DNA of 64,000 nucleotides from a virus (taxonomy: Duplodnaviria; Caudoviricetes), in IMG/VR virus record IMGVR_UViG_2857083903_000001, positions 1 to 64,000 of that record. One strand, written 5' to 3'. The stretch's first letter is position 1; each line of letters opens with the position of its first letter. Made by a program: the position numbers and the translations under genes. Below are positions 1,732 to 22,602 of this stretch, piece after piece. Below the pieces are notes generated by a model. It did no database searches, was not told where the DNA came from, and saw only the letters and a list, made by a program, of their open reading frames with translations.

Positions 1732-2663
1732 CGGGGGGCCTCCTCGAACTCGACGTCGGCTATCAGCGTGGTGACGCTGGTGACGTTGATGCGGCCCGCG
1801 TTGCCGGTGCCGCCGTTTGCCTGGGCGCGCAGGAGTTGCGTGGTCGCGCGGTAGGCGGCGGGCACGGTGAGGGTGTCGGCGCAGATCGCGGGGATCTTCC
1901 GGACGACGTTGCCCTGGTTGTCGTCGAGGCCGGTGGCTTGGAGGGTGAGGGAGGCGCCGAAGGTGGCGCGGAGGTTTCCGACGTAGTCGTTGACGCTGTA
2001 GCGCAGCGGGGACACGTCGACGCGGAGGCGGACGGTGGTGGCCCAGTCGGGGATGGCGATGTTCCAGCCGGCGGCGGTGGAGAAGTAGCTGTAGCTGGTG
2101 GAGGAGCCGATGAGGGAGCTGTCGGCGGTGGGTGACTGGGTGTAGAGGCGTCGGTCTCGGCGGGGGTTGGCGACCTTGCGCAGGTCGGTGATCATGGCGT
2201 TGGTGATGGTGCCGCTGTTCGCGGGGATGTCGATCCGGGCGAGGGGGATGCCGGTGCGGCCGTCGGGGATGCTGGTGGCGCTGGAGGAGACGCCGGAGAT
2301 GATCTGCGGGAAGACGATGTCGTCGGTCTGCGGGTTGCGGCTGTACCCGTACTCGGGGTCCTCCACCCGGACGATGAGCATGTCGGAACGGGCGCTAGCC
2401 CCCGTCGCGGCGATGGGGACGTCGACGGCGCCGATGTTGCAGAACGCGTAGGTCCCTTGGAACACGTTGTCGCGGCCGCGGATGACACCGGAACCGTCCG
2501 CGAGGAGTACACCGCCGCCGGGCGTGGTGCGCTGGGTGACCTTAAGGTCGTCGCCTTGGGTGATGCCCTCGGCTCCGCGGGCGAGGTCGCGCACCAGCAT
2601 GCGGAACTGCTGCGCCGAGTGGGTGGCCCCGTTGGTGAGGATGGGCCGGGGAAAGAAGCTCAC
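1728..2663 (-). CDS. Minor tail / baseplate protein
   Basis: 311 aa, RSDMLIVRVED and IPLARIDIPAN..ITNAMITDLR motifs typical of actinophage minor tail proteins; synteny. Confidence 0.75.
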   Translation of the reverse strand: MSFFPRPILTNGATHSAQQFRMLVRDLARGAEGITQGDDLKVTQRTTPGGGVLLADGSGVIRGRDNVFQGTYAFCNIGAVDVPIAATGASARSDMLIVRVEDPEYGYSRNPQTDDIVFPQIISGVSSSATSIPDGRTGIPLARIDIPANSGTITNAMITDLRKVANPRRDRRLYTQSPTADSSLIGSSTSYSYFSTAAGWNIAIPDWATTVRLRVDVSPLRYSVNDYVGNLRATFGASLTLQATGLDDNQGNVVRKIPAICADTLTVPAAYRATTQLLRAQANGGTGNAGRINVTSVTTLIADVEFEEAPR

Positions 2664-2675
2664 GATGGGCCTTCC

Positions 2676-3575
2676 TCAGAGGGCGGTGTAGGCGTCGCGC
2701 CAGGTCAGGCGCATGCGGGCGGTGTTGGTGTTGTCGAATGCGGTCCACCGCATCTCGGACTGGCCGGGCGGCAGGGAGAACAGGTCGATCCGGGAGGCTG
2801 GCGAAAGGTAGGTGGAGGCGTTGCCGCCGTTGTCCCAGGTGACGGTGCGGGCGCCGGGCCGGGTGTCGACTTCGATCCACCGGCCGGCCGCCAGGTTCAG
2901 GGTGGGCATAGCGAGCGTGCGTCCGGAGTCGGCGTGGATGACGGTGACGTTCGCGCACGGCCCGCTGATCCGGATCACCGGCCAGGCGGGTGCCGTGCCC
3001 GCGTTCGTCACCCAGCCCGGCCGGTCTGCGGCGACTGTGCCGTCCTGCACGAAGATCGGCGCGGCGATGGGGGCGGCGAACCCTCCGCCGGTCAGCCAGC
3101 CCAGCGGGATCTCCGTCGTGCTGTCGGTGTCGGCGTAGAAGGTGGGGTCGTGAGCCAGGAACTCCATGTCCAGCGGCACATAGCCGTGGACGACCTGCTT
3201 GTACTCCGGGTCGAGCTTCCGGGCCCGCACGGTCAGCGACTTCACCGGCCGACCGGGTCGCTTGATCCGCAGCGTCATGCCCTGCCCGCCGACCAGCCGG
3301 ACCGCGGTGCCGTCGGTGGCCGCTTGGAGGGCGGCGACCACGTCATGGCAGGCGGCCGGATCACCGGGGACCCGGATCGCGGCATCGAACTGGATCTGCC
3401 TGCCAGCCCAGTAGTCGGGGCCGGCGAACTGGCCGTCTGCGGAGGGCTGGTCGACGTCGTTGTCCCGGACCGGGGGCCGTCCCAGGCCGGTGGTCTCGAT
3501 GACCTGCACAGGCGTGCCGGCGCCGATGATGACACCGCCGATGTCGTACTGCCAGTCGTTCAGGCTAAGCGGCAC
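2676..3575 (-). CDS. Distal tail protein (Dit-like)
   Basis: Directly after tape measure; AHDPTFY, NAGTAPAWPVIRISGP, LPPGQS, WRDAY motifs; GTG at 3575 after GGGAGGG RBS. Confidence 0.8.
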   Translation of the reverse strand: MPLSLNDWQYDIGGVIIGAGTPVQVIETTGLGRPPVRDNDVDQPSADGQFAGPDYWAGRQIQFDAAIRVPGDPAACHDVVAALQAATDGTAVRLVGGQGMTLRIKRPGRPVKSLTVRARKLDPEYKQVVHGYVPLDMEFLAHDPTFYADTDSTTEIPLGWLTGGGFAAPIAAPIFVQDGTVAADRPGWVTNAGTAPAWPVIRISGPCANVTVIHADSGRTLAMPTLNLAAGRWIEVDTRPGARTVTWDNGGNASTYLSPASRIDLFSLPPGQSEMRWTAFDNTNTARMRLTWRDAYTAL

Positions 3576-6500
3576 GGGCGGCCACCCCTCCCCTGCGGGC
3601 ACGGCGGTAGCTACGGCCGACCTGCGATCCGATGTCCGATGCCGTGGCTCCGGTGCGTACGGCGGTCACCGGCACATTGATGGTGTCGCCGGAGCGGACG
3701 ATGACGACCTGTCGTCCCCCGGATGCGTCGGTCAGACCGACTCCGAACCTGCGAGCCACGTCCTGGAGCACGGGCATGGCCTGGCTGCGTTTTCCGGCCC
3801 CGAGCGGCAGGTATGCCTCGCCGCCTGTGCTGGGCTCGGCGAAACGGATGATGCTGCCCTGCGCGGCGTACATGCCGGCCCGGATACCACCGTCCGCGTA
3901 CGACAGGTGTGCGTTCGCCCTGCCCAGGTCCGCGAGGAACTTGACGGCCCGCGTCCCGAGGGACTTGCTGATCTGACCCTTCGCTTTGTTGGCGACGCTG
4001 ATGATCTCGTCCTCGCCCAGGCTGGTGGCGGCCGCGACCTGATGGATGCCCGTGGTCGGGTTCTTGATCGCGGCGATGATGCTGACCAGCTCGGACACCT
4101 CATCCGCGGTGAGTGCGGTGTTCGCCGTCTTCGCTGCCTTGTTGGCCTGCCCGGCCTTCTTCGGGTCCTTCACCGCGGCGTCCGCGAGTTGCTGCGCCGC
4201 CTCGTCGTTCTGCGCGGCCAGCTGCTGCGCCAGGTCGCCGTAGCCCTCGGCTGCGAGCTTGGCCAGGTTGTCGGAGAACTTCTTGTTCAGGGTGTTGGCG
4301 CTGCCGAGCTGCCGTGTGTAGTCGGTCAGGCTGGCCTTGGCGGTCTTCTGCAGGTCCCTGAGGGCCTTGGACATGTCGTTGATGTACTTGGTGGAGCCGG
4401 TGGCCATCTTGTGGGCGATCTTCATGCCGTCCTCGCCCATCGCGGCGAGTGCCTCGGCCACATCCCCGCCGGCCCGGTCGGCGACCTTCTCGAGATCCTT
4501 GTTCCACGCGGTGGTGGCCTTCGCCGCAGACTTGATCTTTTTCTCGACGGCGCCGACATCGAAGTAGTCGACTTCCTTCGTGGTGGTCTTGCCGTGCTTC
4601 CCCTTGACCTTGACCTTCTTGGTCTTGTGCCCGGCCTGACCGGCGTCGGAAGCGGAGTAAAGGGAGCCGGTGGTGGGGTCATACCGCCAGTCGGTGACGT
4701 TGCCGTCGGCGTTCCATTGGACGGTGCGCGGGTCACCGCCCAGACGACGAATGGTCTCTTCGGCGATGGCGCGGGAGCGGCGCCGCTTGGACAGAGCGAG
4801 AGGGATGTACGCCTCGCCGCCGGTCTCGTCTTCCGCCCAGATCCGCCAGGCGCCGGCGGGAGCGATTTCGGCGAGGTGGTTCTCGGTGCCGTTGGCGAAG
4901 TGCTGGCGGTGTGCCGGGCGCCCGGTGAGTCCGCCGTCGGCGAAGTTGACGATGCCGCCGTTGGCTTTGGTGATGTCGTGGACGCTTCGGTAGGTCTTGC
5001 TGTTGGTGATGATGGTGTTGGTGATGGTGGTGCTGGCAGTGCGTCCGTTGAGGCTGGCGAGCGCGCGGGCGACGGAGTTGATGCTGCCCAGGGCCTGTCC
5101 GTTGGCTGTGTAGACCGCGGTGTGTCCGTCGGGGAGCTGCTTGGTCTTCAGGCCCACGGCATTCAGCGCTGCTATGGCCGCGCTGTTCAGTGTGCTGACC
5201 TTCACGGATTTGGCGCTGGGGGTCTTCTTGATCTGTGCCTGGACTTCATTGAGTCCGGCTACCGCCTGGACCTTGTGGACGTCCACCCGGACGTCCTTGC
5301 CAGGCGGAACCTTGGCCATCTCGCTGATGAGAAGGTCGAGCTGAGACCGGGCCGCCTTCGTCGGAGCGGTGATCTTGTACTCGCGGGTGCCGGGAATCAG
5401 CTTGATCTTGTAGCCGAGATCCTCAAGTTCCCTCTTTGCCTCCTCGCCCAGGGCATCGACCCGAATGGTCTTCGCCGTCGGCATCTTCTGGAACTCGGCC
5501 TGCACCGCGAGGAGCTCGGCGAGCGTGGAGTCGACGCCCTTGGTCTCGAGCAGGATCGACACCTGGCCGGGGATCAGGCCGAGGGAGTCGGCTACCTTCC
5601 CCGCCTGGTCGGCGCTCAGCCCGTAGCCCTGAGCGAGCTTCACCGCCGAGTCCCGCGCTGTCTGCATCTCCTTCTGGGCGGCCGCCAGGGACTGCGGGAG
5701 GCTCTTGCCCTGCGACTGCGCGAAGTCGTAGGCGGCTATCGACGCGTTCGACGCGCCGTCGGCGATCGTGTTGAACGTGGAGAACAGGGCCTGCCCGTTC
5801 TTCGTCGTGGTGTCCAGCGTGCCGTTCGCGTTGACAAGGGCCTTCCCGAAGCCGTCCGCCTTGTTGATGCCGGACTGCATGGCCTCGTTGGCCTGGGTGA
5901 TGGCCTCGTTCACGCGGGCCTGAGCGGCCTGCAGCGACACGGAACCACCAGAGAGCAAGTCAAGGGCGTCTCGCAGGGCACGCGTCCGCTGGTCGGCGTC
6001 CCCTGTCTTGTCCGCGAGCGCGGCCACGGCGTCCTTGAGCCGGCCGTAGGCCGTCTCGCCGCCCTGCGCGCCCTTCACTGCCTCGTTGTACGACTTGGCG
6101 TCCGCCGCAGCCTTACTGAAGTCCCCTGAGAGACCTCCCAGGCCCTGGCTCAGGGCTTGGGCCGCCTTACCGATCCGGTCCGGGGCTTTGACCGCCGCAC
6201 CAGATTCCAGGTCGGTCGTCCACTTGGTGTGCTCCTTGACGACCCCCGACAGTTCCCGCTGGAGCGCACTGAGGGAGGTTCCCTGCCCGGTGTAGGCGTC
6301 GACGAGCTGACTGAACGGCACCTTCGCTTCGCGGGCCAGGTCGACGAGGCGCTTCTGGTCGCCGTACCAGCTCTTGGCCTTCTGCGACATCAGGGTTTGC
6401 GCCGCTACGGCTCGCACGTTGTCGTCCACCGCGCCGTTGGACTGGCGTAGTGCCTCAGAGAGGGCGCTGACCTGCTGCCGGTGCTCTGCGGCGGCCGCGG

Positions 6501-8826
6501 CGGCGGCCTGCTGCCGGGACGCCAGGTAGCCCAGCCCGACCGTGGCCGCGGTGATGGCCAGCCCGACCGGGCCTCCCAGGGCCCCCATGAGGCCGGAGCC
6601 GATGGCGCGGGTTGCGGTCATCGACGCCGCGCCCACCCCGCGCAGTGTGCCGGCGAATCCGGCGCCCTGAGCGGAGGCAGTACGGAACGCTGCACCCATC
6701 TGCCCGAAGATCGGGACACGGGCCTGGAGCGTGGCCATGGCTGCCCCGTACCGGGACAGTGACATGCCCGCAGCGCCGGCGAGGGAGCGCTGGACGGCCA
6801 TCTGCTGGTTCAGGGACTGGAACGCCCCCCGGACCCGGCCGTTCACCGTGTTCGCCAGGCCGACCATCGGCCCTTGGATGCGGCGCACCAGCAGCGCGGC
6901 GAGGACGAACTGCTGCACCGGGCCCGGCAGACTCCCGAACGCCGACACCAGACCGCCCACGACCTGCCCGATAGGGATCAGCACCCCGGACAGGTCCTCC
7001 GCCGCCGTGGCCGCGAGATCCAGGGCGGCCACCACGATGTCCAGAGACGAGGACACCGCATCGGACTCCCCCGCCACACCGCTGAACGCCCCCAGCACTG
7101 GCTGGACGCCGGCCGCCAGGTTCTCCAGGACGTGCACGGCCGCGCCGCCTACGTTCACCAGGACGTGCAGGAAGTCCGCCAGGGCCTCCTCTCCGAGGTC
7201 CTTCAGCGGGCCGGCCAGGTTGCTTGCGGCGTCCGCGATGCCGGCGAACTCCCGGCTTGCGGCCGCCGACACCTCGGGGCCGAAGAGGGTGGCCAGGTCG
7301 TTGAAGTAGTTGAAGAAGTGCTCGATCTTCGGCGTCGCCTCCGACAGGCCAGCCGTGACACCGCGCGTCAGGAACTCAAGGCCCGGCGCCATCCCCTGAT
7401 AGATCGTGAGACCGGTCTGCTTCGCCTGTGTCCCGAGCTGGAGCATCGCACCGGCGAGGCCCTTGCCCTTGGCGGCGGCGATGTCAGTAGCGGCGCCGAC
7501 CTGGTGCGCGGCCTGCAACATGTTGTCGTACGACTCGACGCCCTGGTGGGCGAGCGCGATAGCACCCGACATGGCCGGCTTGCCCATGGACTTCTTCACG
7601 GCGGCGGCAAAGTCCTGCTGGGTCATGTGGTGCTGGGCCTTGGACAGGCCGTCGATGACGTTCCGCAAGCCCTTGAAGTTGCCTTGGGCGTCCCACGCTT
7701 CGATGCCCATGGCCTTCAGGCCCTCGATCATCTGCGGGGTGGGGGCGGCGAGGTTGGCCATCATGCCGCGCAGGGTGGTGCCGGCCGTCTGGCCGAGGAT
7801 GCCCGCCTTACCGAGCATGCCGACTGCGGCGGCGGTCTCCTGCATGGACAAACCGAGCCCGTGCGCGACCGGACCCGCATATTTCATGGCGTAATAAATG
7901 TCGATGATCTCACCAGATGCGGCGTTGGCGGTGGCGGCGAGGGTGTCGGCGGCTTTGGCGGACTGGTCGGCGCCCATACCGAACTGGTCCATCATGTCGC
8001 CCAAGTACTTCGCGGAGTCGGCTGCATTGACCTGGGCTGCCGAGGCGAGGATCACCGAGGAGCGGGTGGCGCTGATGGCCTGGTCGGTGCGGAAACCGGC
8101 CTTGGCGAGCTCCACCATGCCCTCGGCGGCGTCCGCTGCCGTGGCACCCGGCAGCTTCAGGTCGTTGCCGAGCTGGTTGGCGGTGGCGGACGCTCGCTTC
8201 ATCTGCATCTGCGTGGCACCGGTGGTGGCACCGAACGCATTCATGGCCTGCTGGTACTGGCCGCCCTCCTCAATCACCTCGTGCACACCGAGGGCCAGGC
8301 CGAGGGTGGCACCTACTCCGGCGAGGGACTTCAGCGCGCTGTGGGCCCGGCTGGCTTCATCCCGGTAGCGCCGCAAGCTGCCGGACCCTCTGAGGCCCAT
8401 GCGAGCCATTCGGGAGTCCGCACGCTGCGCGGCAGTAGCGAGCCGGGCCAGGTCACGGACAGCGGTGTCGATCTGCCCGGACATGCGAGCCAACTGCCGG
8501 CCGGTAGTGCGCGAGTTTTCACCGAGGGAGGTGACATGCCGGTGCGCGCTCTGCGCGGCATCGCCGTACCGGTTGAGGCGGCGGGTGGCGGTCTGCGCGT
8601 TGTCACCGAGGGAGTTCAGGCGGCGGGCAGCGGTACGTGCCTCGGTGCCCAGAGTCTTGATGTGCTTGCCGGCTGCCTCGGCGGCAAGACCAAGTTCCTT
8701 GACCTCGGTCTTGGCTGTCTTCGCTGCCGTCCCCAGGGACCGGGCGCGCTTCGCGGAGGACTTCAGGGCTTGGGACAGGTCGTTCCCGTTGCCCTTCAGA
8801 TCGACACTGAGGTTCCAGTTCGCCAC
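3565..8826 (-). CDS. Tape measure protein
   Basis: 1753 aa Ala/Gly-rich; TP901-type core (ELAKAG, AMKYAGPVA, AGTTLR); follows tail chaperones. Confidence 0.95.
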   Translation of the reverse strand: MANWNLSVDLKGNGNDLSQALKSSAKRARSLGTAAKTAKTEVKELGLAAEAAGKHIKTLGTEARTAARRLNSLGDNAQTATRRLNRYGDAAQSAHRHVTSLGENSRTTGRQLARMSGQIDTAVRDLARLATAAQRADSRMARMGLRGSGSLRRYRDEASRAHSALKSLAGVGATLGLALGVHEVIEEGGQYQQAMNAFGATTGATQMQMKRASATANQLGNDLKLPGATAADAAEGMVELAKAGFRTDQAISATRSSVILASAAQVNAADSAKYLGDMMDQFGMGADQSAKAADTLAATANAASGEIIDIYYAMKYAGPVAHGLGLSMQETAAAVGMLGKAGILGQTAGTTLRGMMANLAAPTPQMIEGLKAMGIEAWDAQGNFKGLRNVIDGLSKAQHHMTQQDFAAAVKKSMGKPAMSGAIALAHQGVESYDNMLQAAHQVGAATDIAAAKGKGLAGAMLQLGTQAKQTGLTIYQGMAPGLEFLTRGVTAGLSEATPKIEHFFNYFNDLATLFGPEVSAAASREFAGIADAASNLAGPLKDLGEEALADFLHVLVNVGGAAVHVLENLAAGVQPVLGAFSGVAGESDAVSSSLDIVVAALDLAATAAEDLSGVLIPIGQVVGGLVSAFGSLPGPVQQFVLAALLVRRIQGPMVGLANTVNGRVRGAFQSLNQQMAVQRSLAGAAGMSLSRYGAAMATLQARVPIFGQMGAAFRTASAQGAGFAGTLRGVGAASMTATRAIGSGLMGALGGPVGLAITAATVGLGYLASRQQAAAAAAAEHRQQVSALSEALRQSNGAVDDNVRAVAAQTLMSQKAKSWYGDQKRLVDLAREAKVPFSQLVDAYTGQGTSLSALQRELSGVVKEHTKWTTDLESGAAVKAPDRIGKAAQALSQGLGGLSGDFSKAAADAKSYNEAVKGAQGGETAYGRLKDAVAALADKTGDADQRTRALRDALDLLSGGSVSLQAAQARVNEAITQANEAMQSGINKADGFGKALVNANGTLDTTTKNGQALFSTFNTIADGASNASIAAYDFAQSQGKSLPQSLAAAQKEMQTARDSAVKLAQGYGLSADQAGKVADSLGLIPGQVSILLETKGVDSTLAELLAVQAEFQKMPTAKTIRVDALGEEAKRELEDLGYKIKLIPGTREYKITAPTKAARSQLDLLISEMAKVPPGKDVRVDVHKVQAVAGLNEVQAQIKKTPSAKSVKVSTLNSAAIAALNAVGLKTKQLPDGHTAVYTANGQALGSINSVARALASLNGRTASTTITNTIITNSKTYRSVHDITKANGGIVNFADGGLTGRPAHRQHFANGTENHLAEIAPAGAWRIWAEDETGGEAYIPLALSKRRRSRAIAEETIRRLGGDPRTVQWNADGNVTDWRYDPTTGSLYSASDAGQAGHKTKKVKVKGKHGKTTTKEVDYFDVGAVEKKIKSAAKATTAWNKDLEKVADRAGGDVAEALAAMGEDGMKIAHKMATGSTKYINDMSKALRDLQKTAKASLTDYTRQLGSANTLNKKFSDNLAKLAAEGYGDLAQQLAAQNDEAAQQLADAAVKDPKKAGQANKAAKTANTALTADEVSELVSIIAAIKNPTTGIHQVAAATSLGEDEIISVANKAKGQISKSLGTRAVKFLADLGRANAHLSYADGGIRAGMYAAQGSIIRFAEPSTGGEAYLPLGAGKRSQAMPVLQDVARRFGVGLTDASGGRQVVIVRSGDTINVPVTAVRTGATASDIGSQVGRSYRRARRGGVAARAA

Positions 8827-17356: not shown

Positions 17357-17407
17357 CAGGCCCCGCGCCTGAGATCAAGGACACCACAGAAGTCACGATG
17401 TGTTCCC
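17357..17407 (-). promoter_or_regulatory. Late-type promoter GGGAAC-N18-TGTCCT plus AGGCGCGGGGCCTG box (scaffold/capsid)
   Basis: Same motifs and identical spacing as the copies at 19303-19353 and 22552-22602. Confidence 0.7.
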
Positions 17408-19285
17408 TCCGCTCCCTCCGGGCTGCGCGTCCGGCTGGTTGGTGGGCGTGTTGTCGGAGGGCAGACCGGGGAGTTGCGGCGCCGGCGGCGGGGTGGGGTC
17501 GGGGTTGATGTCGACGCCGAGGTAGTCGGCGACGAGCTTCGTGTCACCGGTGGCGTCGGCGAGCTGCCGGGCTGCTTCGAAGGAGCGGGATTCGATCTGC
17601 TTGACCTCTGCCTGAGCGTCGCTTATGGGCCAGCCCGCGTCCTGCAGCATGCGGATCGCGGTCTCGAGGCTGATCACCTTGGCCAGGTAGGCGGTGGTGA
17701 CCTGGTCGAGGACGGCAGCCTTGTCCGTCGGCGTGTAGGGGCCGCGGGTCAGCTTGGCCGGCAGGACGGGCAGCCCGGCCCAGTCGGGGTGCTGGCCTGC
17801 GTGGAAGAGACGCTGCACGAACTTGGGTATGAGCCGGTCGGCGTGGTCGCGGGCGAGCCGCATCCCGGCAATGTTGGAGTCGAGCGGGCCGAGGGACAGT
17901 TCGAGGGCATACCCGGAGGGCACCTTGGAGGGGTCCATGGTGCCCAGGGCGACGGCGGGGAGCCGGACGACGTTGGCTGCCCGGTCGTGGAGGTCGTGGC
18001 CGTGTTCGCGGAGTTCACGGAGGGCGGCGGAAGTGTCGACGGCGGTCATCTTGCCGTTCTCGCCGAGGGTGAACAGGGCGCCGGGGCCGACGTTGAACCG
18101 CTGATTGGAGTCGTGCACACCAGAGATGGCGATCATCGGGAGGCCGGTGGTGCCGGACGCGCGGGCAGAGTCGGTGTCCGACGCGGCAAGCTCGTCGAAC
18201 ACCTGCAGCGCCTTCGCCAGCGACGACTGGCCCCAGTGCTCGCCGGCGGCGGGCACCGTGTTGGGCAGGTGGATAACCGAGATGAAGTCCTGGTAGATGT
18301 CCAGCCGGTCCAGCACTTCGCCCTGGGAGTTGCTGTTGAAGTGGGCCTTCTCCATGGGCAGGGAGTCGACGTCGATGTCACCGGTGAGGTCCTCGAGGAG
18401 CCAGATCCCGTCGGTCAGGTAGCACGTCTTGTAAGAGGGCTGTTCCGACCACGGGTACATGCGGGAGATCGCCCCAAGGTGGTCGACCCGGTCGCCGCGG
18501 CCGAGGACCGGGATGGCGGGTTCGTCGTCGGTGGCTTCGGTGAGGACTGGGGCGCGGACGGGCCGCCCTTGCCGGTCGACCCCGGAGGCGGTGGCGGGCC
18601 TAATCCAGTCCAGCTCGTAGGTGATGCGGCGCAGCCGGGCGGGCAGGCGGCGTTTCTTGTCCTCGGGGAGTTCCCACGCGAAGTGGATTCGGGTGGGGTA
18701 GTCGGTACCGTCGGAGTCCTCGTCGATGACGGGGAAGTAGAAGCCGGGGTCGTAGGTGGTGATGCGGGGGCGCTGCTTGTCGGCGTCCCACCACAGGTGG
18801 AGTACCCCGTCGCCGAGGCCGACGGCCTTGCGTTCGGCCTGGAGGAGCCGCATGGGCAGGAGTTCCTCGTCGGCCCACTCGCGGAGGAGTTCCTGCACGC
18901 GTTCGGCCTGGACGGCCTGCGGGTCGGGCTGGTCGTCGTCGGCGTGTTCGGCGCCGGGCACGGTGATGGACTGCTCGCGGCCCAGGACGTGGGAGACGAG
19001 GGTGTCGACGAACATGGCGGGGTCGCCGTACTCGCGGCGTTCGCGGGCCTCAGCCCCGTCACGGATCTCGGCGAGTTCCCCGGCCTGGTTCTGGTCGTAG
19101 GCGGCGAGGAGTTTGTAGGAGGCGAGCCGGCGTTCGTCTTCGGCGGGGACCCACATGGCGGCGGCTTCGGGGAAGGCGCGGCGTTGTGGCATGCCGGTGG
19201 TGGGGTCGGCAAACAGCGGCTTGTAGTTGAACATCGACCAGTTGTCGATGCGCAGCGCGTGCCGCAGCCCGGTCATGAGGCCCAC
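17393..19285 (-). CDS. Portal protein
   Basis: 630 aa directly after TerL; GLGDGV, HLPN...WGQS, PSGYAL, ISLETA SPP1-like portal motifs. Confidence 0.85.
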   Translation of the reverse strand: MGLMTGLRHALRIDNWSMFNYKPLFADPTTGMPQRRAFPEAAAMWVPAEDERRLASYKLLAAYDQNQAGELAEIRDGAEARERREYGDPAMFVDTLVSHVLGREQSITVPGAEHADDDQPDPQAVQAERVQELLREWADEELLPMRLLQAERKAVGLGDGVLHLWWDADKQRPRITTYDPGFYFPVIDEDSDGTDYPTRIHFAWELPEDKKRRLPARLRRITYELDWIRPATASGVDRQGRPVRAPVLTEATDDEPAIPVLGRGDRVDHLGAISRMYPWSEQPSYKTCYLTDGIWLLEDLTGDIDVDSLPMEKAHFNSNSQGEVLDRLDIYQDFISVIHLPNTVPAAGEHWGQSSLAKALQVFDELAASDTDSARASGTTGLPMIAISGVHDSNQRFNVGPGALFTLGENGKMTAVDTSAALRELREHGHDLHDRAANVVRLPAVALGTMDPSKVPSGYALELSLGPLDSNIAGMRLARDHADRLIPKFVQRLFHAGQHPDWAGLPVLPAKLTRGPYTPTDKAAVLDQVTTAYLAKVISLETAIRMLQDAGWPISDAQAEVKQIESRSFEAARQLADATGDTKLVADYLGVDINPDPTPPPAPQLPGLPSDNTPTNQPDAQPGGSGGNTS

Positions 19286-19302
19286 CGCTTCTCCTCTGCT
19301 TG

Positions 19303-19353
19303 CAGGCCCCGCGCCTGATCATCAGGGTACGGGTGTGGGGTTGGGGTGTTCCC
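19303..19353 (-). promoter_or_regulatory. Late-type promoter GGGAAC-N18-TACCCT plus AGGCGCGGGGCCTG box (portal)
   Basis: Repeated motif with conserved spacing in an intergenic position. Confidence 0.75.
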
Positions 19354-19357
19354 TCGG

Positions 19358-22000
19358 CTATCGGCGGCCGCGGAGCCGCTGGTCGCTGTAGGCGTGGCTT
19401 CCGAGTCCGTGCTGGGCGGGGTCGGCGAGTTCGGTGAGGGCGTGGACGGCGGCGTCCATGCGGTCGGGTGAGTCCATGCCGGGCAGCCAGGTCACCATCT
19501 GCCTCTCCAGGTCGGGGAACTCCCCTACGTGGTGGACGCGGCCCTGCTCATAGAGCTGAGCGATGGGTTCGGCGCGCAGCCGTTTGCCTTGTTTGGCGTT
19601 GACTTCGACGATCCGCGGCATGGGCCGCCCCTGGGTGCGCCCGGATCGTTGGAGGTCTTGCCAGGCTTGGATGAGGACCTGCCGGGTCATGTCGCCGCCG
19701 AAGTTGGTCTCCACGACGAAGGCGTCGGCGTCGAGTTCGATGGCCAGCAGGCATGCCTCGGTACCCCAGGCGTTGGCGCCGTGGCGTCCGGAGCGGTCGG
19801 CGAGAAGGTAGAGGTCTCCGTCTGCTGCACGGCCGCCGGCGACGATGCCGGTTTCGTCGTTGGCGGTGCCAGCGCCTCCCGAGGGGTCGATAGCAACGAG
19901 GGTGCGGCTGAGGTCGACGCCGCGGAACGCGACGGGGCTGCACCGGTTGCCGGTGATCCAGGCCCACTGCCAGACACCACCATCGAGGGGTCGGGGCTGC
20001 TGCTGGTAGAGGGCCCACCAGACACGTTCACCGACGCCCTTGCGGATGCGGGCGAGGTCTTCGGTGTTGTACCGCTCGGGCCACAGAGCCTCGCCATGGC
20101 TGCGGCCAAGGGGATCGTCCTCCGCCATGGCCAGGGCAGGCAGGTCCAGGACGGTCCATTCGTCGCCCTCAGTCTCGAGAAGTCGGCCGGATAGGTCGTC
20201 GGGGTTCCAGCGGGTGTTGATGACGACCAGGCTGCCGTTGGGTTCGAGGCGGGTGAGGGCGACGGACTGCCACCAGTCCCAGACTCGGTCGCGCTGGGTC
20301 TGGGACTCTGCGTCCTCGGATCCCTTGAAGGGGTCGTCGACTATGAGGCAGTTGTGGACGAGTAGACCGTCAGCAAAGAAGTTGCTGTTTCCTTCCACTT
20401 GGATGTCATGGACTCGGACGCCTGGCGCGTGTACTCGGCGAACCAGGGATACGGCGTCTCCGTGGACTTGTGGTGTACGGCGTGGCAGGTGTAGCAGAGC
20501 AAGATGAGGTTCTCGACGCGGTTGTTCGCCGGGTTCTCGTCCAGGTGATGCACGATCAGGTTCGACCGCTGAGCAGGCACGCCGTTCCGCATGAACGTGA
20601 CCGGCTTGAAGCCGGCGGAGCAGACGACGCAGCAGTCCTTGTCCCGCTCGAAGATCAGCGGACGTGTCTCCTTGAACCACTTGCTGTAGCTGGTGCCGTC
20701 CTTGTAGTGGGAGTTTCCCCAGCCGAGCATGCGTATCGAGTGGGCCTTGTCCGCGCAGACGCGGGAGCAGTACACGGTTCGGCTGCTCAGAGGTCGAAAG
20801 AACAGTCCGCACATGGTGCACGGCTTTTCCGGATGCTCCCGAGAGTCGATGCGGCATTGCATCGAGCAGAACTTGTTGTTCCTCTTGCCTGGCATTGCGA
20901 TGTCGCAGTGCTGGCACCGGCGGGCGTTCTTCACCGCATGGTGCGCCTGCGAGTGGTCCTTGCAGCAGTAGAACGAGAAGTGTCCGCGCCGAAGAGCCTT
21001 GTTGTACTCGTACCGGGGCTTCAGGAATTCCTCGTTGCACCATAGGCAGCGAAGAAGGATCTTCACGTATCGAGCCTGGTTGTAGCAGTCCTTGCATGTG
21101 GGACTGAGCGTCCCCCTGGGCTTCCCCCGATCCTTGCCGCACAGTGTGCAGTGTCGGTTCGCCCTCGAGGACGTGCGTTGTAAGCCGGTCCCTGGGCCGT
21201 AGAGACGCGGCCGGCCGGTAACCGAATCCAGGGACATAGAAGGGGTGATCTCCGGTAGCCCGTACTGTATGCCCACGAGCGCTGGTGACTTCGATGAGTC
21301 CATCGGCGGTAGTTGTCCTCGTTGCCAGAATCCGGCGCCACTCCGGTCGGCCGGTCGCATGGTTGAAGGAGAGAACTCGCGGCTTCATCTTCATGGCCAC
21401 GAGTTCTGACATGGCAATTCTACCGATTTCCGTGGTCACCAAGGTCTCATCAGGCAAACAGTTCGCTCCTTTTCCTGTGAGGCCACCGCCCACGCCGGCG
21501 GTAACCATTCCGCCTTCGCGCCCGTCGATATCGAATCGGTTCGCAGCGCGCGAGCCCTGATTGAGGGAGATGCCGAGAACGCTGGCGTAGCCGGTGATGG
21601 TGTCGCGGATCCATCGCCCGTGGTCATCGGCGAGAGTGGCGCTGTAGGAGGCGAGCATGAGCCGGTGATCGGGGTTGCGCCGCAGGTACCACACCGGGGC
21701 CCAACGTGAGGCTCGACGGCTTTTGCCATGTCTTGGAGGCATCGTCAGCATCACCTTGACCCGCTCCCCCACGGCGATGCGCTGGAACGCCTGGTCCACC
21801 AGGTCCAGGTGCCGTGCCTGCATCTCCTTACCGTTTGTGAGGACTGCCGCGAGGGCGCCTGGAGAGCGGTCCATTGCCATCTCGCGCTCAAGGTGAGCTA
21901 GCTGCGCACGCAGCTCGGGAGAGGCTGCACGGGCGATCTCCAGCCGCTGTTCTCGGGGAAGTTGCCGGTAGGCCGCCAGCAGATCGGCGTTACTTGTCAC
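19358..22000 (-). CDS. terL: Terminase large subunit, intein-containing (about 510 aa after splicing)
   Basis: Walker A MPPRHGKS, Walker B LIVDDP, NTRW coupling motif, nuclease IDPS...DETG...DRMDA; GTG at 22000 overlaps the terS end. Confidence 0.95.
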   Translation of the reverse strand: MTSNADLLAAYRQLPREQRLEIARAASPELRAQLAHLEREMAMDRSPGALAAVLTNGKEMQARHLDLVDQAFQRIAVGERVKVMLTMPPRHGKSRRASRWAPVWYLRRNPDHRLMLASYSATLADDHGRWIRDTITGYASVLGISLNQGSRAANRFDIDGREGGMVTAGVGGGLTGKGANCLPDETLVTTEIGRIAMSELVAMKMKPRVLSFNHATGRPEWRRILATRTTTADGLIEVTSARGHTVRATGDHPFYVPGFGYRPAASLRPRDRLTTHVLEGEPTLHTVRQGSGEAQGDAQSHMQGLLQPGSIREDPSSLPMVQRGIPEAPVRVQQGSSARTLLVLLLQGPLAGAPCGEERPPVPALRHRNARQEEQQVLLDAMPHRLSGASGKAVHHVRTVLSTSEQPNRVLLPRLRGQGPLDTHARLGKLPLQGRHQLQQVVQGDTSADLRAGQGLLRRLLRRLQAGHVHAERRACSAVEPDRASPGREPGEQPRREPHLALLHLPRRTPQVHGDAVSLVRRVHAPGVRVHDIQVEGNSNFFADGLLVHNCLIVDDPFKGSEDAESQTQRDRVWDWWQSVALTRLEPNGSLVVINTRWNPDDLSGRLLETEGDEWTVLDLPALAMAEDDPLGRSHGEALWPERYNTEDLARIRKGVGERVWWALYQQQPRPLDGGVWQWAWITGNRCSPVAFRGVDLSRTLVAIDPSGGAGTANDETGIVAGGRAADGDLYLLADRSGRHGANAWGTEACLLAIELDADAFVVETNFGGDMTRQVLIQAWQDLQRSGRTQGRPMPRIVEVNAKQGKRLRAEPIAQLYEQGRVHHVGEFPDLERQMVTWLPGMDSPDRMDAAVHALTELADPAQHGLGSHAYSDQRLRGRR
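20341..21237 (-). CDS. HNH homing endonuclease with multiple zinc fingers, nested in the intein in the +1 frame
   Basis: RDKDCCVVC...VHHLDENPANNRVENLILLCYTCHAVHH HNH motif, several CxxC/FCSxxC repeats; start uncertain (ATG 21237 or 21303; frame open to 21360). Confidence 0.85.
   Translation of the reverse strand: MSLDSVTGRPRLYGPGTGLQRTSSRANRHCTLCGKDRGKPRGTLSPTCKDCYNQARYVKILLRCLWCNEEFLKPRYEYNKALRRGHFSFYCCKDHSQAHHAVKNARRCQHCDIAMPGKRNNKFCSMQCRIDSREHPEKPCTMCGLFFRPLSSRTVYCSRVCADKAHSIRMLGWGNSHYKDGTSYSKWFKETRPLIFERDKDCCVVCSAGFKPVTFMRNGVPAQRSNLIVHHLDENPANNRVENLILLCYTCHAVHHKSTETPYPWFAEYTRQASESMTSKWKETATSLLTVYSSTTAS
20351..21460 (-). mobile_element. Intein (370 aa) in TerL, inserted just before Walker B
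   Basis: N-terminal CLPDETLV (block A), ATGDHPF (block B TxxH), VHDIQVEGNSNFFADGLLVHN (blocks F/G), +1 residue Cys. Confidence 0.95.
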
Positions 22001-22523
22001 TGCCGTCTTCCGCTGCGGCATTCTCGGTGTTGTCCTCGGTGGCCTTAGAAGCTCCCAGTCCCATGAGCGTCTCAAGTTCCGCGCTGGTGACGGGCCCCAT
22101 CTGGAGTGGCCCGCCGTCAGGCCCGGTGACTTCGGCCTTGGTGGGCATGTCGAGGCCGTTGAGTTTGGCCCGCCGGTCCATGAGGCGTAGGACGGTGTCG
22201 ACGGCCCGCATGTCGAGGGCGTGGTCGACGACGTTGCCTTCCTTGTCGAGGACCGGGGAAGGCTTGGTGGCGCGGGGCCAGGCGGCTTCGAGGAGGGCGT
22301 CGAGGCGTTCGTTCTCCTGCTGCCGGTAGATGCTGATCTCGGCGGCTTCTTCGTCGCGGTGGGCTTCGAGGGCGCGTTTGAGGTCGCTGCGGGCGGTGGC
22401 TGCGCTGGCGTAGCCGAGTGCGAGGATGCGTTCGTCGTCGTAGCGGACGCCTTCGCGGCGCAGCTTGAGCAGTGCGGTGCGGCGGACGGCTACTTCGTCC
22501 TGCTTGAGTCTGGACCAGGGCAT
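21990..22523 (-). CDS. terS: Terminase small subunit (putative)
   Basis: N-terminal HTH, RRAKLNGLD.P.K.EVTGPDGGP motif, overlaps the terL start. Confidence 0.8.
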   Translation of the reverse strand: MPWSRLKQDEVAVRRTALLKLRREGVRYDDERILALGYASAATARSDLKRALEAHRDEEAAEISIYRQQENERLDALLEAAWPRATKPSPVLDKEGNVVDHALDMRAVDTVLRLMDRRAKLNGLDMPTKAEVTGPDGGPLQMGPVTSAELETLMGLGASKATEDNTENAAAEDGSDK

Positions 22524-22551
22524 GGCGGTGGGGCTCCCGCTGTGTGGTTGT

Positions 22552-22602
22552 CAGGCCCCGCGCCTATCACGGATGATCGCCGATTTTTGCTGGTGTGTTC
22601 CC
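22552..22602 (-). promoter_or_regulatory. Late-type promoter GGGAAC-N18-GATCAT plus AGGCGCGGGGCCTG box (terS)
   Basis: Third copy of the motif, at the head of the virion operon. Confidence 0.75.

Follow-up and report, generated by a model that had tools for sequence, protein, structure and literature searches.

A terminase intein with a predicted HNH nuclease in its +1 frame and a host frame kept free of stop codons

The stretch of DNA analyzed here, referred to as the window, covers positions 1-64000 of an 86,882-base replicon (the Caudoviricetes record IMGVR_UViG_2857083903_000001), and on its minus strand the terminase gene terL is interrupted by an intein. The results showed that the intein is open in two overlapping frames, that of TerL and the +1 frame, the latter encoding a zinc-ribbon HNH protein. 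Stop codons were avoided in the TerL frame, purifying selection across the HNH body was detected on the HNH frame only, the layout was conserved among relatives, and the element was patchily present among terL alleles. We regard it as likely that TerL is read through the whole intein and spliced in cis, and that the HNH protein is made separately from the +1 frame as a homing nuclease.

The features of the locus are as follows.

19358-22075, minus strand: TerL precursor open frame, 905 codons with no stop (open reading frame (ORF) listing; Pfam Terminase_6N + Terminase_6C on the C-extein).
21461-22075, minus strand: N-extein, the N-part of the ATPase with the Walker A motif PPRHGKS; it terminates in ...GKGAN.
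20351-21460, minus strand: class-1 intein by sequence, 370 amino acids (aa), in the TerL frame, C1...HN (conserved residues in the intein alignment).
21149-21460, minus strand: predicted Hint N-lobe, intein residues 1-104, blocks A and B (matches to the NrdJ-1 intein 8ubs and to the Spl DnaX and Mtu RecA mini-inteins).
20474-21148, minus strand: TerL-frame "shadow" linker, intein residues 105-329, stop-free, with neither amino-acid constraint nor a PDB match.
20351-20473, minus strand: predicted Hint C-lobe, intein residues 330-370, blocks F and G, ending VHDIQVEGNSNFFADGLLVHN (intein alignment and PDB mini-intein matches).
19358-20350, minus strand: C-extein, with Cys+1, then LIVDDP (Walker B) and the nuclease domain, stop included (Pfam).
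20341-21303, minus strand: putative HNH nuclease coding sequence (CDS), +1 frame, 320 aa from its best-supported start ATG 21303; open stop-to-stop from 21384.
21316-21320, minus strand: GAGGA, Shine-Dalgarno-like, 12 nt upstream of ATG 21303, containing a rare TerL AGG Arg codon.
21235-21237, minus strand: alternative HNH start ATG, the start picked by the RefSeq annotation of plasmid pCQ3.
20750-21150, minus strand: CxxC zinc-ribbon-like motif array of the HNH protein, limits approximate (invariant or nearly invariant Cys columns in the alignment).
20470-20631, minus strand: HNH catalytic core with flanking CxxC pairs (C203, C206, H230, H231, N243, C248, C251, H252 and H256, numbered from ATG 21237).
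20341-20343, minus strand: HNH stop codon TAG, in the first C-extein codons, 8-10 nt beyond the intein end.

A preliminary description of this DNA had placed a 370-aa intein fully in frame with TerL, and this was borne out: the 905-codon frame is uninterrupted, the first Cys of the intein lies at 21460, its terminal His-Asn at 20351, and Cys+1 at 20350-20348. The insertion falls after ...GKGAN, three residues ahead of the Walker B Asp-Asp (Cys-Leu-Ile-Val-Asp-Asp-Pro). Residues C1, T69, H72, H369 and N370 were invariant in 18/18 aligned TerL-frame inteins, and Cys+1 was present in the window and in 17/17 relatives. When the intein family profile was compared with PDB, matches covered residues 1-104 and about 330-370 only, including the NrdJ-1 intein (4e-24, the best), Spl DnaX (2.4e-18) and the Mtu RecA mini-inteins. 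By these sequence criteria (splicing residues, Hint profile, an in-frame and stop-free reading), the insert is a class-1 intein. Residues 105-329, read in the TerL frame, had no match in PDB, in agreement with the earlier remark that the middle of the intein looks like shadow-frame text without an endonuclease motif. The Hint part measured 128-139 residues in all 18 inteins and the middle 189-368 residues, and the share of disorder-promoting residues was 0.53-0.66 in the middle vs 0.37-0.50 in the Hint part. The TerL-frame middle (about 225 residues in the window) is probably a tolerated linker, disordered in nature. As a separate observation, the terL of some carriers contains two inteins: in L019 the additional one lies downstream (...NFIANGLVSHN/TRWHEDDL), and protein P0058 opens with a LAGLIDADG-type intein fragment upstream.

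The absence of stops was evaluated by permuting the synonymous codons of the HNH ORF in 20000 shuffles. Across this ORF the TerL frame of the window contained 0 stops, against a mean of 4.8 in the shuffles (P=0.0036), and the third frame contained 8 stops where 8.7 were expected. As a null calibration, eight further genes of the replicon were examined, which had 2-19 stops in the equivalent frame with 1.3-24 expected (P 0.13-0.98). In the relatives, TerL-frame stops across the HNH ORF were zero in 30/31 TerL-anchored rows (29 distinct sequences when the duplicates L009 and L020 are removed), with a shuffle expectation of 1-19 across the rows and of 4-19 for full-length HNH frames, the latter range holding even at 40-47% G+C (L010, L012, L018, L027). 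P was at most 0.013 for each HNH open frame of at least 235 aa, and the third frame of these rows always had about as many stops as expected. Six more loci (L078, L107, L108, L109, L120, L122) had the same stop-free TerL frame. The +1 layout with a stop-free TerL frame was found in 34 loci, belonging to Streptomyces plasmid-phages, the Gordonia phage Clown, Brucella phages and metagenomes. The conserved absence of stops, which the preliminary description had named as a check on its claim of dual coding, was thus observed, and these sequence comparisons indicate that the dual coding is selected and genuine, rather than a sequence error.

The codons of the HNH frame pointed to how the TerL frame is kept open. 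In the window, 0/71 HNH codons starting with AA, AG or GA were preceded by a T-ending codon, compared with 26/268 elsewhere. When 25 nested loci were pooled, the pyrimidine-ending HNH codons standing before AA-, AG- or GA-initial codons had T in 0 cases and C in 769, and those elsewhere had T in 1072 and C in 1922. In 13 free-standing or fractured homologues the corresponding counts were T 299 and C 139 at the positions at risk, and T 641 and C 318 elsewhere (p=0.62); the loci in these pooled counts are related, hence nominal P values are too strong. The TerL frame would accordingly stay open by T never being placed at the HNH wobble position ahead of an AA-, AG- or GA-initial codon. We infer that this is the advantage of the +1 relation: stops in the host frame carry their T on the wobble position of the nuclease, and NNT and NNC are always synonymous. 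Since a T-to-C change at the HNH wobble position is always silent, keeping the host frame open would cost the nuclease nothing, and the count of T 0 vs C 769 before codons at risk fits this explanation.

Selection on the two frames was estimated from eight Streptomyces-group sequences, which are 75-97% identical by segment and differ by gaps of 6 nt and 3 nt only. In the two exteins, 435/545 and 421/675 of the differences from the window fell at TerL codon position 3. In the HNH body the differences at TerL positions 1/2/3 were 548/265/209, and TerL position 1 is HNH position 3. The median ratio of nonsynonymous to synonymous substitution rates (dN/dS, Nei-Gojobori, over 28 non-independent pairs) was 0.054 in the N-extein, 0.28 in the intein N-lobe and 0.11 in the C-extein. 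For the HNH body it was 0.18 in the HNH frame vs 2.0 in the TerL frame, and 1.6 in the third frame. This difference between the frames indicates that the HNH protein is conserved and under purifying selection, as the preliminary description would have it for homologous alleles, and that the TerL reading of the HNH body is as little constrained as a non-coding frame, the absence of stops being its only detectable constraint. The composition of the DNA changed along the gene as well, with a G+C content of 0.65-0.72 in the flanks vs 0.58-0.62 within the intein. The HNH frame had a G+C content at third codon positions (GC3) of 0.81, and when the intein was read in the TerL frame the G+C by codon position was 0.78/0.50/0.52, with the peak moved to position 1.

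The claim of a zinc-finger-rich HNH ORF in the +1 frame, ending at 20341 and with a host-like codon bias, also held, as the frame is open from 21384, has the GC3 given above and contains the HNH motifs. The pattern CxxC...HH...N...CxxCH...H was invariant across 23 aligned HNH-frame proteins, down to 29% identity; C203, C206, H230, H231, N243, C248, H252 and H256 were invariant in the 23 sequences and C251 nearly so. At E<=0.01 the Pfam family HNH matched 19/23 family members and HNH_3 matched 17/23, and Endonuclease_7 was absent among the Pfam families listed for HNH-frame proteins. The HNH profile matched the HNH domains of IscB (1e-5) and McrA, and a match to the PHROG family phrog_1271, annotated "HNH endonuclease", was obtained at E=2e-23. 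When 1.84 billion protein representatives were searched with the profile, 287 clusters matched at E<=1e-30. Among the best 150, at least 83 have a C-terminal tail that corresponds to intein blocks F and G read in the +1 frame, and these clusters are therefore taken to be nested alike; the rest of the best 150 were truncated, or ended directly after the HNH motif and were free-standing in appearance.

The start of the HNH protein was analyzed in eleven Streptomyces-group sequences, which are close kin. The +1 frame contains ATGs at 21360, 21303 and 21237, and the preliminary description had preferred 21237, with 21303 as the alternative. Before ATG 21303 (the first 52 intein codons), the minimum numbers of changes at TerL positions 1/2/3 were 30/20/81; between 21303 and 21238 (22 codons) they were 16/10/7. 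Third-position variability in the TerL frame was high in the N-extein and dropped sharply from about 21310. The HNH-frame peptide from ATG 21303 (MDSSKSPALVGIQYGLPEITPS) had a mean identity of 80%, and the 22 codons upstream of this ATG were 53% identical when read in the HNH frame, compared with 80% when read as TerL. ATG 21303 was kept in 11/11 relatives, and so was the TerL AGG Arg codon that forms GAGGA, AGG accounting for 10/301 Arg codons in eight genes of the replicon. The distant members L008, Pr, L025 and L015 have a stop that closes the HNH frame a few codons before the start codon after the N-lobe, and GGGAG or AGGAG lies upstream of the HNH start in L008 and Pr. The position of this stop favours independent initiation over frameshifting. 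Taken together, identity, substitution pattern and conservation in 11/11 are suggestive of a start at ATG 21303 rather than at 21237, so the alternative of the earlier proposal gained support and its preferred start did not. ATG 21360 was also considered and rejected, because it is missing in several relatives and the segment 21360-21304 shows TerL-type periodicity only.

The same arrangement was found widely. A tblastn search of the HNH protein against phage records returned the Gordonia phage Clown and 41 Brucella phage records. In Brucella phage Pr, the TerL gene (2347-4893) is noted as "intein present" and an HNH CDS (3170-3856) lies inside it at an offset of +1; in Clown, the HNH match lies at +1 within a single terminase CDS of 920 aa. 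Pattern scans with a three-protein HNH alignment gave 61 viral and 12 genomic loci. When the frame relation was determined by tblastn of N-extein, N-intein, HNH and C-intein/C-extein pieces, the HNH frame was +1 to both intein halves wherever the flanks were detected, with the exception of L028. The HNH frame was intact in 25/29 distinct sequences and in all 6 later loci. The exceptions were L006 (2333-3400) and L016 (2294-3300), with one nonsense codon each in an otherwise intact HNH frame and TerL still open, the minimal 133-aa HNH of L053, which is still +1, and the fragment L068. The nonsense codons in L006 and L016 possibly represent early decay of the endonuclease.

L028 (1233-3924) provided a natural variant with a fractured terL. 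Its N-extein and N-intein form an ORF (1233-2048) closed by a stop, next comes a free-standing gene for an HNH homologue at 2039-2899 (core identity 36%, E=2e-16), and the ORF of C-intein and C-extein (2836-3924) overlaps the HNH end by 64 nt. The TerL-equivalent frame of L028 contained 32 stops, with 30.7 expected. By its sequence, L028 is a split intein with a free-standing HNH and without stop avoidance. In the HNH tree, 3/41 branches were well supported, which is too poor to place L028.

No HNH in frame with TerL was found among the loci, and 4 of the best 150 database proteins looked like fusions. A word-based search for in-frame variants in proteins of 523-2000 aa gave 0/541 candidates at E<=1e-5, which is weak evidence. 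The fusion protein P0035 was rejected as a true in-frame form: its DNA on contigs L119, L120 and L121 has the normal two-frame layout, so it is a chimeric gene call. L109, a 43% relative of the fusion-like P0136, has the normal two-frame layout too. Gene calls that jump between the TerL and HNH frames were seen in public collections for P0035, P0057, P0058, P0111 and P0136, P0035 alone having been checked on its own DNA (three contigs, no frameshift). In the gene tables of L107 (NZ_CP108353) and L108 (NC_013449, pCQ3), an HNH CDS was listed together with a "hypothetical protein" that is the C-extein only and starts inside the intein; the full TerL frame (905-938 codons) is unlisted in these tables, which are incomplete.

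The distribution of the element was patchy. A homologue of the TerL C-extein occurred in 34/400 other genomes sampled from the same genus, and among 29 terL loci from the genus one had the intein with HNH, 26 had contiguous exteins and 2 were partial without an N-extein match. The closest intein-less allele was 75-77% identical, and empty sites read GAH/[VLI]A.VDDP. The phage Clown carries the element, and the TerL of Portcullis (535 aa) is without it. On an extein tree of 56 rows the element required at least 4 gains or losses; nine Streptomyces carriers formed one clade within intein-less alleles, and the Streptosporangium carrier was sister to two intein-less Streptomyces alleles. The element is thus patchily present among alleles, as for homing elements. 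Over 18 loci the identities of Hint and HNH were correlated (r=0.93, Mantel 0/2000; means 0.48 and 0.47), and by this sequence measure Hint and HNH diverged together as one unit.

In the mechanism that we consider likely, ribosomes would read the TerL frame straight through the intein, and the Hint halves (about 104 and 41 residues) would fold around a linker of about 225 residues that is the out-of-frame reading of the HNH gene. The Hint domain would then splice in cis and restore the Walker B motif of the packaging ATPase. A 320-aa zinc-ribbon HNH would be initiated independently inside the intein, most likely at ATG 21303 behind GAGGA, and its reading would end at the stop supplied by the first extein codons. 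This protein would most likely be a homing endonuclease that cuts intein-less terL alleles, and homing and splicing would be carried out by separate polypeptides. Splicing, translation of the HNH frame and its start, nuclease activity and homing are what we infer here from sequence.

Several observations weigh against parts of this interpretation. For the window sequence alone, Pfam Intein_splicing scored 32.8 bits, under the 35.8 cut-off, and the window HNH protein alone scored 22.6-23.0 bits for HNH_3 (cut-off 24.8) and 18.2-18.4 for HNH (cut-off 21.4). The sole basis for disorder in the linker is composition, with disorder-promoting residues at 0.63 in the linker of the window vs 0.46 in its Hint part. 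Stop avoidance was not significant in short or partial HNH frames (P of 0.18 in L006, 0.08 in L015 and 0.33 in L068). As to the HNH start, the conserved ATGs and the AGG codon also fall in conserved TerL residues of the 11 close-kin sequences, and the distance of 12 nt from GAGGA to ATG 21303 is long for Shine-Dalgarno. A scan of the minus strand at 19300-22600, which spans the element, gave no sigma-70-like promoter, and RNA structure at 21190-21310 was not unusual (z=+1.15). As to mobility, the intein-bearing rows of the extein tree were collected by the feature itself, so they are a biased sample. Identities between inteins and between HNH proteins are at about the same low level as between exteins, and since intein identities are not above extein identities there was no sign of recent transfer between distant exteins; judged on these sequences, long vertical descent with losses also fits.

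Other explanations were weighed against the two-frame model. Two compensating indels from sequencing or assembly might mask a canonical intein with its HNH in frame, the outcome that the preliminary description had named as fatal to its claim. However, the eight aligned close relatives come from different assemblies and show 6-nt and 3-nt gaps only, three others (L078, L107, L108) keep the open TerL frame with the +1 HNH, the +1 relation is common to 34 loci, and a stop-free TerL frame would be pointless unless read; we give an artefact next to no credence. Among public sequencing runs, none shared more than 0.10 of the sequence words of the window, and no RNA run was listed among those that matched. 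Programmed frameshifting, which had been offered earlier beside separate production, could act by a +1 shift after block B and a return before block F, giving a canonical intein, or by one +1 shift giving an N-extein-IntN-HNH fusion. Both frames are on the same strand, the HNH frame of the Streptomyces group is open upstream into the N-lobe, and the four fusion-like proteins among the best 150 read N-extein, IntN and HNH as one chain, all of which would suit it. Yet no nested locus has a TerL-frame stop anywhere in the HNH body, an absence that frameshifting does not need and that goes far beyond chance in 34 loci, which makes frameshifting unlikely; moreover, a stop shuts the HNH frame just upstream of the start codon in L008, L002/L022, L025 and L015, and the fused P0035 and the relative of P0136 resolved to normal two-frame DNA, as described above. 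Separate production is hence the part of the earlier proposal that stands, and frameshifting seems very unlikely. It is also conceivable that TerL is made as two pieces joined in trans, from a fractured gene with a split intein, and exactly such a form is present in the relative L028. A stop after the N-intein together with a separately started C-intein ORF was found in L028 only and not in the window, where stops are lacking from the TerL frame and its openness is actively maintained, whereas L028, which does not need read-through, has stops at the expected number. Trans-joining in the window is highly improbable.

The remaining alternatives accept both frames and concern the role of the HNH protein. 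If the HNH ORF were a silent relic, the element would amount to a mini-intein, inherited vertically, whose long linker is junk. Intein divergence parallels extein divergence, L006 and L016 have one nonsense codon each in the HNH frame with TerL still open, and the HNH of L053 is minimal, all of which would suit a relic. Against this stand the HNH-frame dN/dS of 0.18, the invariance of catalytic and zinc-binding residues in 23 sequences down to 29% identity, the intact HNH frame in most distinct sequences and in the later loci, and the nested form in at least 83 of the best 150 representative clusters, and a relic is in our view unlikely. The HNH protein might instead, or besides being a homing enzyme, have been domesticated to assist the terminase in packaging, in the manner of the HNH proteins encoded next to terminase genes in other phages; its location inside terL and its long preservation would agree with this, and the idea was put forward for brucellaphages in PMC4422536, with reference to studies of HNH proteins that take part in packaging. 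But pZL12, with the same gene order and an intein-less TerL of 486 aa, had no HNH match at E<=1e-5 in the phage collection, the exteins are contiguous and the insert is absent in 26/29 of the terL loci retrieved from the genus, and the other PF01844 matches in the genome are all chromosomal; a packaging role is improbable. The two-frame model with a homing nuclease is thus the one retained.

As to the origin of the layout, we propose tentatively, and at somewhat less than even chances, that the nested +1 arrangement is no transient intermediate but a lasting end state, reached when a mini-intein captured a free-standing HNH gene in a single ancient event, that phages of Actinobacteria, of Proteobacteria and of uncultured hosts now share it, and that it persists through the wobble property of the genetic code. 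If this is true, the wobble rule would also cover the +1 HNH genes in a DNA polymerase intein (L058) and in methyltransferases (L033, L051), and nature would have tried cis-splicing Hint domains with 190-370 residues of arbitrary linker.

These additional +1 genes were observed outside terL. L058 (436-3339) carries a family-A DNA polymerase intein (...SGRLSC/... ...YSHN/SSNPNLQNLP) with a +1-frame HNH ORF at 2351-2908, and its host frame had 0 stops with 10.2 expected. L033 (1201-2964) and L051 (1312-2970) are DNA cytosine-methyltransferase-like frames with a nested +1 HNH ORF; their host frames had 0 stops with 4.6 and 4.1 expected, and no obvious Hint blocks. A Staphylococcus phage match under a methyltransferase CDS (H100) may be another hidden HNH of the ShiLan type, which is described below.

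The family offers a clear example from nature of dual coding that is under selection over a long stretch (about 0.7-1 kb), with openness the only requirement on one frame. It supports the view of intein origin in which the splicing domain comes first and the endonuclease invades later, and contiguous and fractured (split-intein) forms are linked here through one homologous HNH. Hint domains splicing across long arbitrary inserts are also of interest for protein engineering. For annotation, automated pipelines fragment such terminase genes, with RefSeq records of related plasmids showing only an HNH CDS and a C-extein fragment, and protein databases contain chimeric, frame-jumping gene calls for this TerL intein/HNH family.

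The replicon, the second of its genome, has a siphovirus-like late module on the minus strand, with the ORF 21990-22523, TerL, a portal gene (17393-19285) and a tape-measure-like ORF (3565-8826, 1753 aa). Similarities were seen to the Streptomyces plasmid-phage pZL12 and to Streptomyces plasmids of 85-93 kb (pCQ3, for example), the latter bearing the intein with HNH; the TerL of pZL12 is intein-less, and its C-extein is 68.6% identical to that of the window. The minus-strand ORF 21990-22523 (177 aa) precedes terL and shares 86 nt with it at the listed TerL start, which is therefore provisional. The product of this ORF matches phrog_645 ("Rnase E") at 5e-27 and, judged by position, may be the small terminase subunit.

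The architecture is not new. A TerL intein with a nested HNH in brucellaphages (Brucella phages Tb, Pr and others; NC_019447 gp07 and gp08) was already published in 2015 (PMC4422536), and by comparison of the sequences the window element is a further member of the family noticed there. Both have the same insertion site (...HN/C-[VIL]-I-[IV]-DDP) and homologous Hint parts; the brucellaphage HNH is a zinc-ribbon homologue of that of the window (33% identity, E=9e-21), is likewise +1, and lies under a stop-free TerL frame where 10 stops were expected. The differences are in the hosts and lineage, podoviruses of Alphaproteobacteria vs an actinobacterial plasmid-phage in the window, and in the nuclease, which is shorter in brucellaphages (228 aa), with a GTG start directly after the N-lobe and a stop within block G. 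The note in the brucellaphage record labels the HNH "intron-encoded", and the portion of PMC4422536 that is accessible offers no test of dual coding. No family-wide analysis of the TerL element was found in the literature searched, which lay outside most subscription journals and preprint supplements. What the present analysis may add to print is the strength and breadth of stop avoidance, the ATG 21303 start, the fractured relative L028 and the wobble explanation.

The preliminary description had suspected similar reports in actinophages, rightly so: besides the brucellaphage paper, the accessible text of a preprint (bioRxiv 10.1101/2025.01.02.630785) describes inteins of actinophages whose endonucleases are encoded in a different frame or on the other strand, many of them in TerL, and its authors propose invasion of the intein by a free-standing endonuclease. 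Those inteins, like that of the window, keep the splicing domain in frame with the exteins, and an ORF of its own, located between the splicing blocks, encodes the endonuclease. The 385-aa TerL intein of Clown, listed there as the largest class-1 intein, is a member of the TerL intein/HNH family of the window. The types given in the main text of the preprint are an in-frame HNH, an antisense LAGLIDADG, an antisense VSR-like and an endonuclease VII-like enzyme in "frame 3", and the endonuclease of Clown is unnamed in that text. The window has an HNH/HNH_3-type zinc-ribbon nuclease at +1 (frame 2), unlike the endonuclease VII-like (IPR004211) frame 3 type as it is presented there.

In the ShiLan-type system, as given in the accessible part of PMC11855218, an out-of-frame HNH is hidden in phage DNA methylases and an independent start inside the insert is proposed. 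The nested, out-of-frame HNH and the stop-free host frame are as in the window. However, the text available for the ShiLan type reports no detectable splicing domain, and the insert is thought to be retained in the host protein, whereas the HNH of the window is flanked by a complete class-1 Hint domain. L033 and L051 look ShiLan-type.

Fractured genes, described in the accessible portion of PMC2677866, have an intein split in two, and the gene that stands alone between the parts encodes an endonuclease, of the GIY-YIG and Vsr-like types and not HNH. Like the window, they have the endonuclease gene at the canonical endonuclease/split site of Hint, and its 3' end overlaps the downstream intein part. 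L028 has this arrangement with a homologous HNH, and the best PDB match of the window intein is the NrdJ-1 intein. In fractured genes the host frame is broken, whereas in the window it is unbroken, so that splicing must be in cis.

TerL inteins of mycobacteriophages are the subject of PMC5050341, in whose accessible text the Walker B site (TerL1-e) is known and a representative was spliced in a reporter. The element of the window shares with canonical bifunctional inteins the class-1 splicing blocks and the insertion in a TerL ATPase motif. In canonical inteins, with LAGLIDADG or in-frame HNH enzymes, the endonuclease is a domain of the same polypeptide, whereas in the window it would be a separate product and the in-frame middle a non-homologous filler.

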